Below, piece after piece: positions 1-64,000 of a stretch of 64,000 nt of DNA; position 1 is the first letter of the stretch; every line of letters starts with the position of its first letter. Location of the stretch: assembly GCA_036229005.1 (NCBI GenBank), contig JAZAMN010000024.1, positions 258,364-322,363 on the forward strand. Reading direction: 5' to 3'. The notes under the pieces were generated by a model. That model ran no database searches and was not told the DNA's origin. It worked only from the letters and a program-made list of their open reading frames with translations. The stretch comes from Myxococcota bacterium (lineage in GTDB: Bacteria; Myxococcota_A; UBA796; CAJQPC01). A program made the translations under genes and the position numbers.

Positions 1-645
1 TTCGGACTCTTCGATCACCGCGATCCCACGGTGCGCTTCGCCCGGCGCGGCGCCCTGTACGCGGTCGCGGACGGCGTCGGCAGCACGCGCGACGGCGCCG
101 CGGCGGCCGAGGTGGTGATCCAGCACCTTCAGCAGTTCTTCACCTCAAGCTGGCACCCCTCCGAGAACCTGCTGGTCGACGTGGTCGAGGCCGCCGACGC
201 CGAGGTCCGCATGACCATCGGCAGCGCCAGCACCCTCACCGGGGTCTGGATGGCCGATCGCGTGGTCAGCATCTTCAACGTGGGCGACTCCGCCGTGTTC
301 CTGCACCGCGACGGCCAGCTCCAGCGCATGACCCCGGAGCAGAAGCGCGGCGGCGGCCTCAGCGCCTGGGTGGGCATGGGGCCCAGCATCCGCCACATGC
401 TCTTCATCCGGCGCCTGCCCATCCACGTGGGCGACGAGTACCTGATCTGCAGCGACGGCGTGCTCGAGGCCCTGAGCGTCCAGGAGCTCGGCACCCTGCT
501 CCACGCCCACGGCGATGCGCTTCTCGATCAGGTGCGGGAGCGCCTGGACGACCGGGGCCACGGCGATGACGCCACGATGATCCAGCTCCGCGTGCTGGCC
601 GAAGAGGTCGCGCCCTCCCAGTTGGAGCTCGAACCCCTCCCGTGA
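1..645 (+). CDS. PP2C/PPM-family Ser/Thr protein phosphatase (probably 5'-truncated by the window edge)
   Basis: Motifs AVADGVG, NVGDS, ICSDGV and DDAT; the frame is open from base 1. Confidence 0.9.
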   Translation, partial: FGLFDHRDPTVRFARRGALYAVADGVGSTRDGAAAAEVVIQHLQQFFTSSWHPSENLLVDVVEAADAEVRMTIGSASTLTGVWMADRVVSIFNVGDSAVFLHRDGQLQRMTPEQKRGGGLSAWVGMGPSIRHMLFIRRLPIHVGDEYLICSDGVLEALSVQELGTLLHAHGDALLDQVRERLDDRGHGDDATMIQLRVLAEEVAPSQLELEPLP

Positions 646-2036
646 AGGCGCCCCCCGCTGCGTGGCTGGAGCAGCACCCCTCCGCCGTTGAGGTCGACAG
701 CGGCCTGCCCTCGCCCCGCCGCGCGCGCCGCGATGGGGACACCTGGATCCTCCGCTGCACGCTGGCCGGCCCCCTCGCTCCCCAGGCGGAGCAGGAGTCG
801 GGCTGGGCGCGGGTCCAGGGGCTGGAGCCCGGTCCAGACAGCGCCCTCGCGCCCCTGGCCACGCTGTTGGAGTCGGGCCGACTGACCCCGACCTCGCTGG
901 CGCCCAGGGAGCTGCTGAGCTTGCCGGGCGTCAACCCAGCCCGGGCGTTGCGGGCGCTGCGCATCAAGCGGGTCGATCGCTTCCTCGACCGTCCCCTGGA
1001 GATCGCCCACCGCGTCGGCCCCTCCTACACCCTGAGCCGGGACTTCCTGCGGCGACAGGGGGAGCGGGTGGTCTGCCTGGCCCCCTTTGAACCCCAGGGC
1101 TGGCAGGCGCTGGACGTGGCGCAGGTGGCCCTGGAGGAGGACGCCGACCTCAGCGAGCTGCACGGGGGAGGCGCCGCAGGAGAGACGGCGCTGCTCCTGG
1201 CGACGCTGGCGCTGGCGCTGCAGAGGAGCTGGCGGGACCGGGATCCCGAGAGCGCCGACCGGGTCCGGGAGTGTCTGGAGGCCCTGAGGAGTCCGCCTCC
1301 GGAGCGGGTCCACATCCGGGTCCACGGCCCCGACTGGCTGGACACCCGGCCCTGGAGTGGGGATCGCAGCGCGAGCGAGGCCCGGCGCATCCTCCACAAC
1401 CTCGACGGGCTGCAGGTGGACGGTCAGAGCCTGCGGGTGGACTGCACGCCGCCGCTGCACAAGGGGAAGCGCCCCCTGCTGCGCGAGGACCGGACCGTGC
1501 GCCGCACCCGCCTCTTCTCCCGCTGGGAGCAGGGCATCCAGACCGACGACGAGGGCCTGCTCTCCGCCACCCCCGAGGCCCTGGCCCTGGACTTCGTGCA
1601 GGGGCTCTCCGGGCGCGTGCTGGACGGGACCTGCGGGGTGGGGGCCCTGGCGATCGCGGCGGCCCGCCGAGGCTGCAGCGTGGTGGCCTGTGACCTGAAC
1701 GGACCGCGCCTGGAGATGGCCCGCCACAACGCCCGGATCTACGGGGTGGAGCTGGATCTCCGCTGCGCGGACGTGCTGGACATCCTCCGCAGTGATGGCC
1801 CATTCGACGCCTTGATCCTCGATCCTCCCTGGGGCGGGCGCGACTACGACCGCCAGGGGATGCGCGCCCAGGACCTGCCCTTCCCGCTGCTGGAGGCCCT
1901 GGAGCTGGCCCCCCCGATGGTGCGCCTCAAGCTGCCCCGCTCCTTTCTGACCCAGAGCCTCCCCGGGGACTGGCGCTGGTCTGCGGCGGTGGATGCGCGG
2001 GGCGTCTTCAAGTTCCTGGTGGGGCGGCGCCCGTGA
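642..2036 (+). CDS. Tgs1-like (RNA cap guanine-N2) SAM-dependent methyltransferase with long N-terminal extension
   Basis: RLFSRWEQGIQTDDEGLLSATPE, VLDGTCGVG, ARHNARIYGV, LDPPWGGRDY and KLPRS match recalled Tgs1 signatures; GTGA overlap with the upstream gene. Confidence 0.8.
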   Translation: MKAPPAAWLEQHPSAVEVDSGLPSPRRARRDGDTWILRCTLAGPLAPQAEQESGWARVQGLEPGPDSALAPLATLLESGRLTPTSLAPRELLSLPGVNPARALRALRIKRVDRFLDRPLEIAHRVGPSYTLSRDFLRRQGERVVCLAPFEPQGWQALDVAQVALEEDADLSELHGGGAAGETALLLATLALALQRSWRDRDPESADRVRECLEALRSPPPERVHIRVHGPDWLDTRPWSGDRSASEARRILHNLDGLQVDGQSLRVDCTPPLHKGKRPLLREDRTVRRTRLFSRWEQGIQTDDEGLLSATPEALALDFVQGLSGRVLDGTCGVGALAIAAARRGCSVVACDLNGPRLEMARHNARIYGVELDLRCADVLDILRSDGPFDALILDPPWGGRDYDRQGMRAQDLPFPLLEALELAPPMVRLKLPRSFLTQSLPGDWRWSAAVDARGVFKFLVGRRP

Positions 2037-3172
2037 TCGGCGGCCTGATCCTGGCCTTCCTGCTGGGCGTCGACGCTCTGCGCCGCGTCTACTCGGTGGG
2101 GCGCACCTGGAACGACCACTTCGTCGCGGCCGTGGTGCTGGGCTGCATGGGCTTCTACGCGCTCCACTGGCTGAGCGCTCCCGTGGCCCTCCGGCCGCTC
2201 TGGGGCTTGGGGATCCTTTGGATCTGGGGCCTGTTCTTCGCCCTGGGCGATCAGCGCGGGGACATCGCCCCCAAGTGGGCTCTGTGGGCCTTCGCCTGGC
2301 CCTCCCAGCTCGCCTACGCCTTCGCGCTGTGGGGCGGCCTGACCTGGCTCATCCGCGCGCCGATCGCCTGGGCCCTGGGCGCGGATCCTTGGTGGGCCGG
2401 CCCCTGGCTGCTCATCCCCGCAGTGCTCGCGGTGGCCGGGCAGATCCAGGCAATGCGCCCCCAACCCATCCGCCACCACGCCGTCCAAGGTCTGCCCGCG
2501 CGCATCGTCCAGCTCTCGGACCTGCACGCCAGCCCCGTGATGGCGCAGGAGGCCCTGGACGCCCTGGTGGACCGGGTCAACGCCCTGGAGCCCGCGCTGG
2601 TCTGCATCACCGGCGATCTGGTGATGCCCTTCTCCGAGGCCCGCCACGACTACCTGGTGCGTGCCTTGGCGCGGCTCCAGGCCCCGGTGGTCTGCTGCCC
2701 GGGGAACCACGACCTGCCCGTCCTGGCGCGCCTTCAAGAGGCTCTGGAGGCCGAGGGGATCGCGCTGCTCGCCGATCTGAAGGCCCACCGCGCGGGCTTC
2801 GAGGTCGTGGGCTTCACCTTTCGCTGGGGAGATGCCGCCGACGAGGTCAGGCTGACTGCGCGTGACCTCGCTGGGGCCAAGGAGTCCTTCCGGGTGTGGC
2901 TGGCCCACGATCCGAGGGTGGGTGGGTGGCTGGAGCCCGGGAGCTGCGATCTGCTCCTCTCCGGACACTCCCACGGCGGCCAGGTGGGCCTGAACATGTT
3001 CGGCCTGCGCCCGACGCTCTGGGGGCTCCTGGGGCACCGCGACCAGGGCTGGTGGGAGGCCGGAGGGGCCCCGCACTACGTGCACGCCGGCAACTGGTGG
3101 ATCGGCCTGCCGCCGCGCATGGGCGTCAGCGGGGAGATCGCGGTGTTCGAGCCCTCGGACCGACCGGGCTAG
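2033..3172 (+). CDS. Membrane-anchored calcineurin-like metallophosphoesterase (YkuE/YaeI-like)
   Basis: N-terminal TM helices; SDLH, TGD, GNHD, LAHDP and SGHSHGGQ motifs. Confidence 0.88.
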   Translation: MIGGLILAFLLGVDALRRVYSVGRTWNDHFVAAVVLGCMGFYALHWLSAPVALRPLWGLGILWIWGLFFALGDQRGDIAPKWALWAFAWPSQLAYAFALWGGLTWLIRAPIAWALGADPWWAGPWLLIPAVLAVAGQIQAMRPQPIRHHAVQGLPARIVQLSDLHASPVMAQEALDALVDRVNALEPALVCITGDLVMPFSEARHDYLVRALARLQAPVVCCPGNHDLPVLARLQEALEAEGIALLADLKAHRAGFEVVGFTFRWGDAADEVRLTARDLAGAKESFRVWLAHDPRVGGWLEPGSCDLLLSGHSHGGQVGLNMFGLRPTLWGLLGHRDQGWWEAGGAPHYVHAGNWWIGLPPRMGVSGEIAVFEPSDRPG

Positions 3173-3930
3173 CCGAGCACGAGCTCCACGGGGGCGTGGT
3201 CGGAGGCCTTCTCCTTGCCGCGCTCCAGGCGGTGGATGCGGGAGCCCTGCACGCGGTCCAGCACGGGCTGGCTGACCAGGAAGTGGTCGATGCGGTAGCC
3301 GGCGTCACGCGCGTAGCAGTTCATCCGGTAGTCCCAGAAGGTGAAGCTGCGGGGCGCCAGGTAGGGCTTGGAGGCGTCGGTGAGCCCCCAGTCCAAAAGG
3401 CGCTGGAACTTGTCCTTCTCGACCTGCGTGAAGGAGCAGACGCCCTCCATCTTGACCACGTCATAGACGTCGTCGTCCTGGGGCGCGATGTTCAGGTCGC
3501 CGGTGATCACGACGGGGGTGGCGGGGTCCTGGGTGGCCTCCAGCCAGGTCTGCAGGGCGTCGTAGAAGCGCAGCTTGTAGTCGAACTTCTCGTGCCCGAC
3601 CTTGCGGCCCTGGGGGCAGTAGAGGTTCGTGATGCGGACGCCGTCGATGGTCGCGGCGATCAGGCGGGACTCGCCCTCGTCGCCGTCCGGGAGGCCGCGG
3701 TGGACCTGGGACATGGGCAGCTTGGAGGCGATGGCCACGCCGTTGTAGGTCTTCTGCCCGTGGGTCTCCAGGAAGTAGCCCCGCTCGGCGAAGATCTCGC
3801 GGGGGACCTTGTCGTCCTCGAGCTTGAGCTCCTGCATGCACAGGACGGTGGGGGAGACGCGGTCCAGAAAGTCCGCGACGTGCTCGGCGCGGGCCTTGAG
3901 GCTGTTCACATTGAAGGTGACGATCTTCAT
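3169..3930 (-). CDS. xth: Exodeoxyribonuclease III
   Basis: MKIVTFNVNS, QELK, YNGVAI, GDLNIA, RIDH and SDHAPV. Confidence 0.95.
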   Translation of the reverse strand: MKIVTFNVNSLKARAEHVADFLDRVSPTVLCMQELKLEDDKVPREIFAERGYFLETHGQKTYNGVAIASKLPMSQVHRGLPDGDEGESRLIAATIDGVRITNLYCPQGRKVGHEKFDYKLRFYDALQTWLEATQDPATPVVITGDLNIAPQDDDVYDVVKMEGVCSFTQVEKDKFQRLLDWGLTDASKPYLAPRSFTFWDYRMNCYARDAGYRIDHFLVSQPVLDRVQGSRIHRLERGKEKASDHAPVELVLG

Positions 3931-3997
3931 GCCAACAGCCCTAACCCAGGCCCCTGAACGCAGCGTCGGCTATCCTCTGGGGCCTTAGGAGATCCCC

Positions 3998-6223
3998 TTG
4001 CTGCAGCCTGGTGATGAGATCGACATCTGGGTGGTGGAGCACGCGCTGGGGCAGGGCGGGATGGGCTCGGTCTACCGCTGCCACAACCGCTCCGCCAAGC
4101 GCATCCTGGCCGCGGTCAAGACCCTGGACCCCAGCCTGAACAAGATCGCCACGGCCAAGGCCCGCTTCGTCCGGGAGGCGGAGATCCTCTTCGCCCTGGA
4201 CCACCCCAACATCGTGAAGGTGCGCAACGTCCGCATGGACGCCGAGCTGCCCTACATCGAGATGGAGTTCGTCGAGGGCGTCTCCCTGGACAGCCAGATC
4301 CTGCGCGGCCCGATGGCGGTCGACAAGGCGGTGGCGCTCTTCAAGCAGGCGGCCTCGGCGGTGGCCTACATGCACGAGAGGGGCGTGCGGCACCGCGACA
4401 TCAAGCCCTCGAACATCATCCTCAAGTCCGACGGGCGCCTCAAGCTGGTCGACTTCGGCATCGCCACCGAGCAGGACGGCAAGACCCTCACGGCCCACGG
4501 GCAGACCTTCGGGTCGGTGTCCTACGCGCCGCCGGAGTGGATCGAGCCCGGCTCCCTGGAGGCCGTGCGCTGGGACGTCTACAGCCTGGGCACGGTGTTC
4601 TACGAGATGCTCGTGGGGCGCTTCGCGTTCCCGGTCTCTGGCCTGGGAACAAGCCGCCAGAAGGCGCTGCAGGTGATGATCGCCAAGCAGAAGCACCCGC
4701 CGCTGGACCCGGGCCCCACGCTCCCGGTGGACCTGCGCCGCCTGATCCGCGCGATGACCCGCAGCACCCCCGAGACCCGCCTGGCCACCGCCCAGGAGGT
4801 GCTGGACGCGCTCGAGGCCGCCGACCTGGAGACCGTGGACCCCGACGCCGAGTTCGAGGACACGCCGGTCGAGGCCCCCAGCTCCCACACCTGGTACCCG
4901 GGGATGGACCTGGAGGACATGGTGGACTCCCAGCCGGTGCCGCTGGAGCAGGCCGCCGAGCAGGCCGCGACCCCCCGCCCGCCGGAGACCCGGGAGCCCG
5001 AGCCGGCCCCCACCCTTGAGCCTCCCCGGCCCGAGCCCGCGCCCCAGGACGCCCCCATCCCGCCGGCCGACACGGGCGACGACTCCAACAAGAAGCTGGT
5101 GCTGGTCGGCTTCATTGCGGCCTTGGTCCTGCTCATGGCGGGCCTGGGCTGGCAGGTCTGGCGCAGCGATCCGGGACGCCAGGACCCCATCGTCGAGCCC
5201 CCTGCCGCCGCCCTGGGCCGAGACGTGGACGTCGTGGTCACCGGGCTCGCCCAAGACTCCGACCTCCAACTCCGGCTGGGCGGCGCCCGCTCTCGCAGCA
5301 GCGATGGCTTCGTCCACCACTTCAAGGACATCCCGCTGGGGAGCGTCGAGCTGGTGGCCATCCAGGGCGCGGGCTGTGAGCCGACCACCGACCAGCCCTG
5401 GTGCAAGCGCAGCGTGCAGACCATGGAGCTGGGCGCCGGCGAGGGCGTGCACACCCAGACCCTCAGCCTCTCTCCGCTCCCCGAGCGTCAGATCGAGCTC
5501 CGGGGACTGCGGGGGATGACCCTGCGCCTCGAGGGGGAGGAGGTCGAGGTGGATCGGCGTGGCCGCGCATCGATCTCCACCGCTCCGGGCCGCTATGCCC
5601 TCAGCGCCGAGAAGGGACTCTGCCCCAGCGAGGTCACCGGGTGCTCGGCGGACGACAACTGCCCCGCTGGCTGCAGCTCGTGGGAGGGCAACCTGGACAT
5701 CCCCGTCGACGGCGAGCTTGCCGCCTTCGAGATCCCGCTCCCCGAGCCCTCCAGGCGGGCGGGTGCGGAGGCCCCCGCGACCACACCGAGCAGCGACCCC
5801 ATCCCGGAGCAGGCGCCGCCCGCGTCTTCGGACGCTGCGGCCAAGGCCCAGGTCAGCAACAAGCAGCTCGCCTCCTGGCTGGCCTCCCACCCCGAGTGGC
5901 AGCGCGAAGCCGCCTTGGAGAGCGGCAAGGCCGCCGGCAACTACCTCAAGGGCTGGGAGGGCGCGACGCCCCCCGCCGGGCAGGAGAGCGCCGCCGCCGT
6001 CAACGTGAGTTGGTCGATGGCCAAGGCCTACTGCGCCGGGCGCGGCGGCTTGGCGCCCACGAGCGCGAGCCCCAGCACCTGGGACGAGGGCGGCGCGCTG
6101 GCCTGGCACGAGTACCGGCAGCAGGACGGCGCGCCCGCGTGGGTGCGCAGCGACGGCACGGTGAGCACGGCCGTGAAGAAGAGCGACGCGAAGGCCTTCA
6201 TCGGCTTCCGCTGCAGCCGCTGA
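3998..6223 (+). CDS. Membrane Hanks-type Ser/Thr kinase with C-terminal abbreviated FGE-sulfatase-like domain
   Basis: LGQGGMGSVY, HRDIKPSN, DFG; TM segment LVLVGFIAALVLLMAGLGW; C-terminal VNVSWSMAKAYC...IGFRC; AGGAG SD before the TTG. Confidence 0.88.
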   Translation: MLQPGDEIDIWVVEHALGQGGMGSVYRCHNRSAKRILAAVKTLDPSLNKIATAKARFVREAEILFALDHPNIVKVRNVRMDAELPYIEMEFVEGVSLDSQILRGPMAVDKAVALFKQAASAVAYMHERGVRHRDIKPSNIILKSDGRLKLVDFGIATEQDGKTLTAHGQTFGSVSYAPPEWIEPGSLEAVRWDVYSLGTVFYEMLVGRFAFPVSGLGTSRQKALQVMIAKQKHPPLDPGPTLPVDLRRLIRAMTRSTPETRLATAQEVLDALEAADLETVDPDAEFEDTPVEAPSSHTWYPGMDLEDMVDSQPVPLEQAAEQAATPRPPETREPEPAPTLEPPRPEPAPQDAPIPPADTGDDSNKKLVLVGFIAALVLLMAGLGWQVWRSDPGRQDPIVEPPAAALGRDVDVVVTGLAQDSDLQLRLGGARSRSSDGFVHHFKDIPLGSVELVAIQGAGCEPTTDQPWCKRSVQTMELGAGEGVHTQTLSLSPLPERQIELRGLRGMTLRLEGEEVEVDRRGRASISTAPGRYALSAEKGLCPSEVTGCSADDNCPAGCSSWEGNLDIPVDGELAAFEIPLPEPSRRAGAEAPATTPSSDPIPEQAPPASSDAAAKAQVSNKQLASWLASHPEWQREAALESGKAAGNYLKGWEGATPPAGQESAAAVNVSWSMAKAYCAGRGGLAPTSASPSTWDEGGALAWHEYRQQDGAPAWVRSDGTVSTAVKKSDAKAFIGFRCSR

Positions 6224-63936: not shown

Positions 63937-64000
<64 letters not shown>

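Follow-up and report, generated by a model that had tools for sequence, protein, structure and literature searches.

In animals and fungi, RNA caps receive additional methyl groups from enzymes of the TGS1 type. Giant viruses carrying Tgs homologues cap their own mRNA, and the mimivirus Tgs presumably acts in a single round. To our knowledge, the usual capping machinery is absent from bacteria. The Tgs enzymes so far characterised are described as requiring prior N7-methylation (PMC4615557, PMC2588526), and Giardia Tgs2 and Trichomonas TvTgs as single-round N2 methylases (PMC1865056). The family has been called apparently exclusive to eukaryotes (PMC2588526); the same report cites Mouaikel 2003 for an uncharacterised similar family in archaea and Gram-positive bacteria, through which the prokaryotic Tgs-like proteins have possibly been noticed before. 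Full-text literature searches, with most subscription papers outside their scope, returned no study of bacterial Tgs proteins, which databases label automatically as "trimethylguanosine synthase". Bacterial m7G is described within tRNA and rRNA, among free turnover nucleotides and in an m7Gp4Gm cap reported in E. coli (PMC3899018, PMC7044304). Methylation of this cap blocks RppH; the report gives its methylases as not known, and states that caps reported by a concurrent study were not detected (PMC7044304).

The window (the whole 64,000-nucleotide stretch of Myxococcota DNA that was analysed) exhibits near its beginning an ORF of 464 aa, of which the C-terminal part resembles these enzymes. 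Its features and neighbours are as follows.

1..645, + strand: PP2C-family phosphatase, upstream, with its 5' end beyond the window; linked in 14 of 58 loci, close kin only
642..2036, + strand: the whole gene, GTG start, 464 aa; kinase-fold domain, half-RRM module and Tgs-family methyltransferase
666..1292, + strand: aminoglycoside-phosphotransferase/choline-kinase (APH/ChoK) fold, putative pseudokinase, aa 9-217; GPS at the HGD-loop position
1293..1466, + strand: truncated RRM/ferredoxin-like module, aa 218-275; helix2-beta4 at 1371-1442
1479..2033, + strand: Tgs-type N-terminal extension and class I SAM methyltransferase core, aa 280-464; aligns to human TGS1 643-843
1821..1847, + strand: catalytic/guanine-stacking motif DPPWGGRDY; D394, W397 and Y402 correspond to human S763, W766 and Y771
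1929..1943, + strand: KLPRS; K430, P432, R433 and S434 correspond to human F804, P806, R807 and N808
2033..3172, + strand: membrane metallophosphoesterase, downstream; linked in 10 of 58 loci, close kin only
3169..3930, - strand: exonuclease III (XthA-like); linked in 11 of 58 loci

The ORF overlaps both the upstream and the downstream gene by 4 bases, and the motifs quoted in the first-pass annotation, which had described a Tgs1-like methyltransferase with an RRM-like module, are all present in its (+) translation. Its GC content by codon position (about 0.77/0.52/0.92) is found in all three parts of the protein and resembles that of the neighbouring genes. The gene is under purifying selection: a comparison of four genomes of the genus gives dN/dS values of 0.08-0.55, below 1 for each part of the protein, and of 0.08-0.29 for the methyltransferase, these values being rough with synonymous sites near saturation. 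Contamination or a recent gain from a eukaryote was rejected, given the codon composition and the orthologues found in 36 of 40 relatives at E<1e-13. A mobile-element origin was likewise rejected, the phage and plasmid collections being without a match. A helix-hairpin-helix match (E = 0.047) was discarded as it occurs in one of 31 family members. An Rfam search gave no match near the gene, and the only RNA contig at the locus covers the upstream gene alone.

In the Pfam search the best match is PF09445, at E = 6.5e-12 and with 45.8 bits where the cut-off is 22. For NCBIfam, of whose 35 matches 25 were listed, no model among those listed exceeded its own cut-off. A sequence search of the PDB places human TGS1 first (3gdh, E = 1.5e-18; 3egi, 6e-18), the next entry following at 2.7e-7, and a profile of 22 core sequences scores 151 bits against human TGS1 and 46 bits against the next match. 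The 33-residue lead-in (aa 284-316), when searched alone at E<=10 against 177,635 PDB sequences, matches only 3gdh and 3egi, in agreement with the earlier view that this segment is specific to Tgs1. The AlphaFold2 model of the full-length protein (pLDDT 93.4, pTM 0.80, from an alignment of 41 sequences) superimposes on 3gdh, the active form of human TGS1, with Z 24.9 and an rmsd of 2.4 over 183 residues (28% identity), and the match takes in the extension required for cap binding (human 643-843). The structural runners-up are the next chain (Z 16.8), aTrm11 (16.5), TrmN (16.2), PrmA (15.0) and an RsmD-like protein (14.9), and the first six ranks in Foldseek are all TGS1 chains. By profile and by modelled fold, the C-terminal 185 residues are thus a member of the Tgs (cap guanine-N2 methyltransferase) family. 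The THUMP m2G enzymes (TrmN, Trm14, aTrm11), RsmD, RsmC and PrmA share with our protein the class I fold, the (N/D/S)PP(W/F/Y) motif and a small RNA-binding domain ahead of the catalytic domain, but their structural scores (Z 14.9-16.5) are far below that of TGS1 and none of them matches the lead-in. A placement with RsmD, PrmA, Trm11/Trm14 or THUMP-type methyltransferases, the alternative named in the first-pass annotation, was obtained neither by profile nor by fold.

Homologues number 136 among 8000 candidates scored; their labels point mostly to Myxococcota and Sandaracinaceae, Sandaracinus amylolyticus among them, and the automatic name trimethylguanosine synthase is borne by several. In a sample of the phylum, PF09445 is present in 51 of 301 genomes and always as a single copy: in the host, in 37 of the 43 other genomes of its order, in 5 of 14 in the rest of the class and in 8 of 243 elsewhere. 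Identity in the core is 24-46% across families. Besides these Myxococcota-type proteins, a standalone Tgs of about 205 aa is found in Methylocystis, Actinomycetota, Patescibacteria, two DPANN archaea, Bdellovibrionota and others, with 435 proteins at E<=1e-20 among 3324 candidates, so that the prokaryotic Tgs radiation is broader than first noted. The standalone form retains the KYW extension, scores E = 2e-61 against human TGS1, being nearer to it than the 464-aa protein, and has no characterisation in the literature searched. It resembles our protein in the DPPWGG motif and in having no conserved neighbour, and differs from it in the kept KYW extension, the lack of extra domains and the sporadic occurrence. 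It is rare within its groups: other genomes around the carriers, incomplete ones included, yielded 0/250, 0/200 and 0/120 in three groups. Among viral stretches there were 188 matches, many labelled as giant-virus MAGs. The archaeal controls Methanocaldococcus jannaschii and Methanosarcina acetivorans also exhibit PF09445 above the cut-off. A structurally complete Tgs domain is accordingly almost fixed within a single bacterial order and occurs here and there in other prokaryotes; with its new three-part architecture, it represents a prokaryotic branch, on which the searches found no earlier study, of an enzyme family already known.

Residue equivalences were established from HMM alignments and rodent TGS1, with roles, those of the DPPWGGRDY residues included, taken from PMC2709555 and PMC1865056. 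The likeness to human TGS1 (3gdh; PF09445) embraces the fold and N-terminal extension, the guanine-stacking Trp, the facing Ser and the Tyr/Arg phosphate contacts. Equivalents of human F655, E667, S671, T673, D696, D719, N731, W766, G767, G768, Y771, P806 and R807 are all kept. These residues are described as mattering in human TGS1 or Giardia Tgs2 (PMC2709555, PMC1865056), and F655, E667, S671, T673 and N731 as lying in or contacting the extension that completes the cap pocket (PMC2709555). The extension of our protein exhibits an Arg-rich helix, F292, E304, S308 and T310, and the stacking-Trp motif (S/D)PPWGGxxY is present as DPPWGGRDY at 394-402; DPPW-type motifs occur in HemK-like enzymes too. 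Unlike the human enzyme, our protein has DPPW for SPPW (S763->D), T for F698, K for F804, S for N808 and L for N704, and D283-R284-T285, within the Arg-rich helix, in place of K646-Y647-W648. At the phosphate contacts, Y402 and R433 are kept (Y771, R807) and K646 is replaced by D283, with R284, R287 and R288 nearby as possible substitutes. The human S763D mutant is reported to retain 97% activity, DPPW is the form of Giardia and mimivirus (PMC2709555, PMC1865056), and the change at F698 corresponds to the Giardia DGT (PMC1865056). Giardia Tgs2, compared through the motifs quoted in PMC1865056 and, like Trichomonas TvTgs, outside our tree and alignments, shares with our protein both DGT at motif I and DPPWGGxDY; of its residues given there as essential, F18, T40, D68, E91, N103, D140 and W143 have equivalents and D76 has none (L336).

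Conservation was counted in 252 family proteins among 373 classified, the "short" class including fragments. W397 and D394 are conserved in 251 of them, P432 in 250 and K430 in 246. The position of F804, where the strict two-round trimethylguanosine synthases have an aromatic residue, is thus a lysine here; it is F or Y in 37 of 41 eukaryote-type rows, K in 28 of the 30 viral loci tabulated (all 30 with DPPWGG) and K or R in 88 of 120 standalone proteins, which keep DPPWGG. An F804 pocket cradling the first methyl for a second methylation is put forward in PMC2709555 as a proposal only, and the choice of D or S at the start of the PPW motif is described as not fixing the number of rounds (PMC2709555, PMC1865056). 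Since F804 is replaced by K430, a single round of methylation is weakly suggested. The Asn/Asp position after motif I (human N704, Giardia D76), whose Ala mutant is reported to leave 5% activity in the human enzyme (PMC2709555), holds L, I or M in nearly all long forms (117 of 119). Short forms have N or D there in 55 of 68 cases and a second type of long form in all 13, and S is found in 62 of 120 standalone proteins. Judging by this pattern of residues, the loss at L336 is a lineage change within the Tgs family rather than an exclusion from it. Short forms are often without equivalents of F655, Y771 and R807 (the R807 position is P in 30 of 68) and keep W397 and K430, which suggests that family-wide selection acts more on the guanine site than on the phosphate site.

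The first-pass annotation, right about the family of the methyltransferase, had overlooked the domain at aa 9-217. Sequence tools gave no significant profile match for this segment, nor did the Atlas give a usable one, and kinase ancestry by sequence profile is not significant (2.9% and 0.7% probability). Folded alone, however, aa 9-217 reach pLDDT 96, and a fold search matches them to choline, fructosamine and aminoglycoside kinases (187 of 209 residues aligned at Z 9.9 and an rmsd of 3.7 in the best match; 187-201 of 209 in the top rows), all 50 of the 50 matches listed being of the kinase fold; the best Foldseek E-value is 1.4e-3. The bilobed kinase-like fold of the APH/choline-kinase superfamily (PF01636) is therefore present, and it is common to two divergent long-form groups (hhalign 96.6%). 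In a register taken from weak, low-probability profile alignments, the HGD loop reads GPS/GPxLGG here, and the catalytic HxD and the metal-binding Asp are not kept; the second long-form group exhibits HGAL at this loop, and HGDL occurs once, in a distant relative (P0189). The domain is probably a pseudokinase that has lost its catalytic aspartates. It is accessory, because many relatives are without it.

Between the two domains, the stretch resembling an RRM lies at 1371-1442. A profile of the module against the PDB ranks RRM proteins first (SRSF3, E = 5e-4, then Raver-1, RBM19 and SRSF7), although the best-matching stretches span helix2-beta4 only. In the model the module has strands 222-228, 240-243 and 265-269 and one helix, and the RNP aromatics are absent; a complete beta-alpha-beta-beta-alpha-beta RRM (PF00076) with RNP1/RNP2 aromatics is not present in the protein. 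Pfam detects no RRM in any of 30 members, and hhalign of the module against two RRMs of the same genome gives 6% only. The module is found in 221 of 252 family proteins (98/119 long type-1, 12/13 long type-2, 52/52 mid and 59/68 short); 21 of the 119 long-form relatives and all 120 standalone proteins gave no match to the profile, which was built from the family. In short forms (264-293 aa) the whole small fold is apparently complete, as judged by eye. The resemblance to helix2-beta4 proposed earlier is thereby upheld, but the reading as an RNA-binding RRM is weakened, the module being half a domain here and missing from some relatives; RNA binding by it is plausible.

Our protein also differs from human TGS1 in its fusion to these two modules, and in a host for which no capping enzyme was found: the genome (94% complete) exhibits neither an mRNA guanylyltransferase nor a cap N7-methyltransferase above cut-off, and no capping gene lies beside the Tgs gene in 22 standalone and 20 Myxococcota-type loci. 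The initial statement that no m7G caps are known thus holds for this lineage, though not for E. coli, where m7Gp4Gm is reported (PMC7044304). The host has RsmD, RsmG, one THUMP methyltransferase and two divergent TrmB-family genes (G000:C6:25498-26313 and G000:C71:77453-78214). Among carriers, 11 of 51 have at least two copies of TrmB, a higher share than the 13 of 250 non-carriers, in a hand count in which kin are not independent; a second TrmB as a necessary N7 partner was set aside, extra copies being limited to those 11 carriers. That the protein stands in for an absent RsmD or RlmL-type enzyme was rejected, both RsmD and a THUMP methyltransferase being encoded by the host. Searches for RsmJ and for the N-domain of RsmC gave no match in the host, nor in most controls.

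A functional operon was rejected as well: links to the PP2C (14/58), phosphoesterase (10/58) and xthA (11/58) genes are infrequent, some of these loci being close kin, and no neighbour is conserved beyond kin except for a partial link to xthA. Exonuclease III directly adjoins the Tgs-like gene in four short-form loci of another family (L013, L015, L018, L025), and in L013, L018 and L025 is co-oriented with it and abutting. Standalone loci exhibit no recurring partner among ORFs picked by a heuristic that may miss genes. In two actinomycete loci (L089:4705-6336 and L093:4691-6322, both - strand), a 544-aa protein without a Pfam match converges on the Tgs gene. A Bdellovibrionota-labelled contig (L104) carries two standalone paralogues in tandem (3875-4567 and 4610-5329, +), preceded upstream by a different methyltransferase and by a 496-aa protein without a Pfam match.

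As to the substrate, we tentatively favour, as possible rather than probable, a guanine-N2 monomethylase acting on an m7G-polyphosphate RNA end, because the long form retains Tyr and Arg on the phosphate side and has additional parts that are basic and of RNA-binding-like character. From sequence and model we infer an activity on RNA that depends on N7-methylation and runs for one round, not two. The SAM-dependent enzyme would work in the manner of Giardia Tgs2: an N7-methylated guanine would stack on W397, faced by S308, the carbonyls of D394 and P395 would activate N2, and N2 would accept a single methyl from SAM, the 5' polyphosphate being held by R433, Y402 and the Arg-rich helix (R284-R290). 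The likeliest substrate would be an end such as an m7Gp4N-type cap, converted to m2,7G, with the half-RRM and the presumably dead kinase-fold domain as accessory, lineage-specific binding modules. In favour of it are the TGS1-like fold and profile, the conserved pocket residues, the need of characterised Tgs enzymes for N7-methylation, the cap reported in E. coli, purifying selection and the near-fixed single copy. Several findings speak against this reading. No capping gene was found in the host genome or beside the loci scanned; PF09445 is unmatched in the E. coli control, so the m7Gp4Gm cap exists there without a Tgs-type enzyme; K646/Y647/W648 are not kept, the N704 equivalent is lost in all but two of the long forms, N808 is S, and short forms often drop the equivalents of F655, Y771 and R807. 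If the protein is active on m7G, carrier cells must hold an m7G-polyphosphate substrate, and bacterial methylated caps would gain a first named enzyme, or else a new modified nucleoside would come to light.

Somewhat unlikely, though kept close behind, is N2 methylation of an internal flipped-out guanine in structured RNA, or of m7G46 in tRNA or m7G527 in 16S rRNA; the RRM-like module and the Arg-rich helix would then do the job of THUMP in TrmN/Trm11. It is retained because the phosphate-binding residues decay in short forms (they vary in standalone forms too) and the near-fixed single copy has a housekeeping-like distribution. The frequency of the module and its apparent completeness, by eye, in short forms point the same way, as do the DPP-aromatic motif common to Trm11 and RsmC (PMC1865056, PMC2709555) and the host's capacity to make internal m7G with two TrmB and one RsmG. 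Against this stand a fold and extension that are TGS1-like rather than Trm11-, TrmN- or RsmD-like, a host already equipped with RsmD and a THUMP methyltransferase, and 120 standalone proteins without an RNA-binding module.

It is distinctly unlikely that the protein tags free m7GDP or m7GTP from RNA turnover or digestion of prey RNA, a house-cleaning role with no bacterial cap. Characterised Tgs enzymes are reported to accept both nucleotides (PMC2588526, PMC2709555), bacteria have m7GTP-specific pyrophosphatases (YceF, PMC3899018), and the standalone form occurs sporadically, as an accessory gene with no partner; yet m7GTP and m7GMP are given as below detection in E. coli extracts in PMC3899018, hydrolysis would be a simpler route, and the RRM-like module would be superfluous. 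A Tgs-derived enzyme that has shifted to a different acceptor (an amine on a small molecule or a protein), or a long-form relic of weak activity, has equally little probability: the loss of the N704 and K646 equivalents, the fusion to a small-molecule-kinase fold, the rapid divergence between families and the motif shared with HemK-like enzymes speak for it, and the persistence of the TGS1-specific extension and of the S671/T673/N731/W766/Y771/R807 equivalents, and the low dN/dS of the methyltransferase, speak against it.

The finding bears on the origin of TMG capping. For the phylogenetic analysis, loci that were duplicates or fragments were excluded, as were 50 of the 80 viral ones, and 164 rows were reduced to 124 (80% identity and gap filter) and then by random sub-sampling to 96 rows of 159 columns, the eukaryotic rows coming from proteins >405 aa only, mostly animals. 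The tree exhibits clades of eukaryotes (99/97), of 15 of 16 viral rows (100/100) and of the long form (100/97); long and short forms join with three further rows of the Myxococcota type at 86/93. The long form, being its own clade outside the eukaryotic one, again contradicts a recent gain from a eukaryote. Giant-virus homologues, alike in DPPWGG and the lysine at F804, are set apart as a long-branch clade. Eukaryotes adjoin eight standalone proteins (89/86), with the root and backbone open and the outgroup not on one side of a branch. AU tests (51 rows) reject neither a single Myxococcota-type clade (p = 0.79) nor the long form together with eukaryotes (p = 0.27), and the direction of transfer is not settled by these tests. 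That this bacterial order caps its own RNA with m2,7G by means of a resident Tgs, and that Tgs arose in prokaryotes with eukaryotic Tgs1 derived from this radiation, as the position of the standalone proteins may hint, is on present evidence unlikely.

The protein of a viral contig (L120:4001-4660) groups with the prokaryotic standalone form and not with the giant-virus homologues. At the far end of the window, a 16S rRNA gene begins (63937-64000, +).
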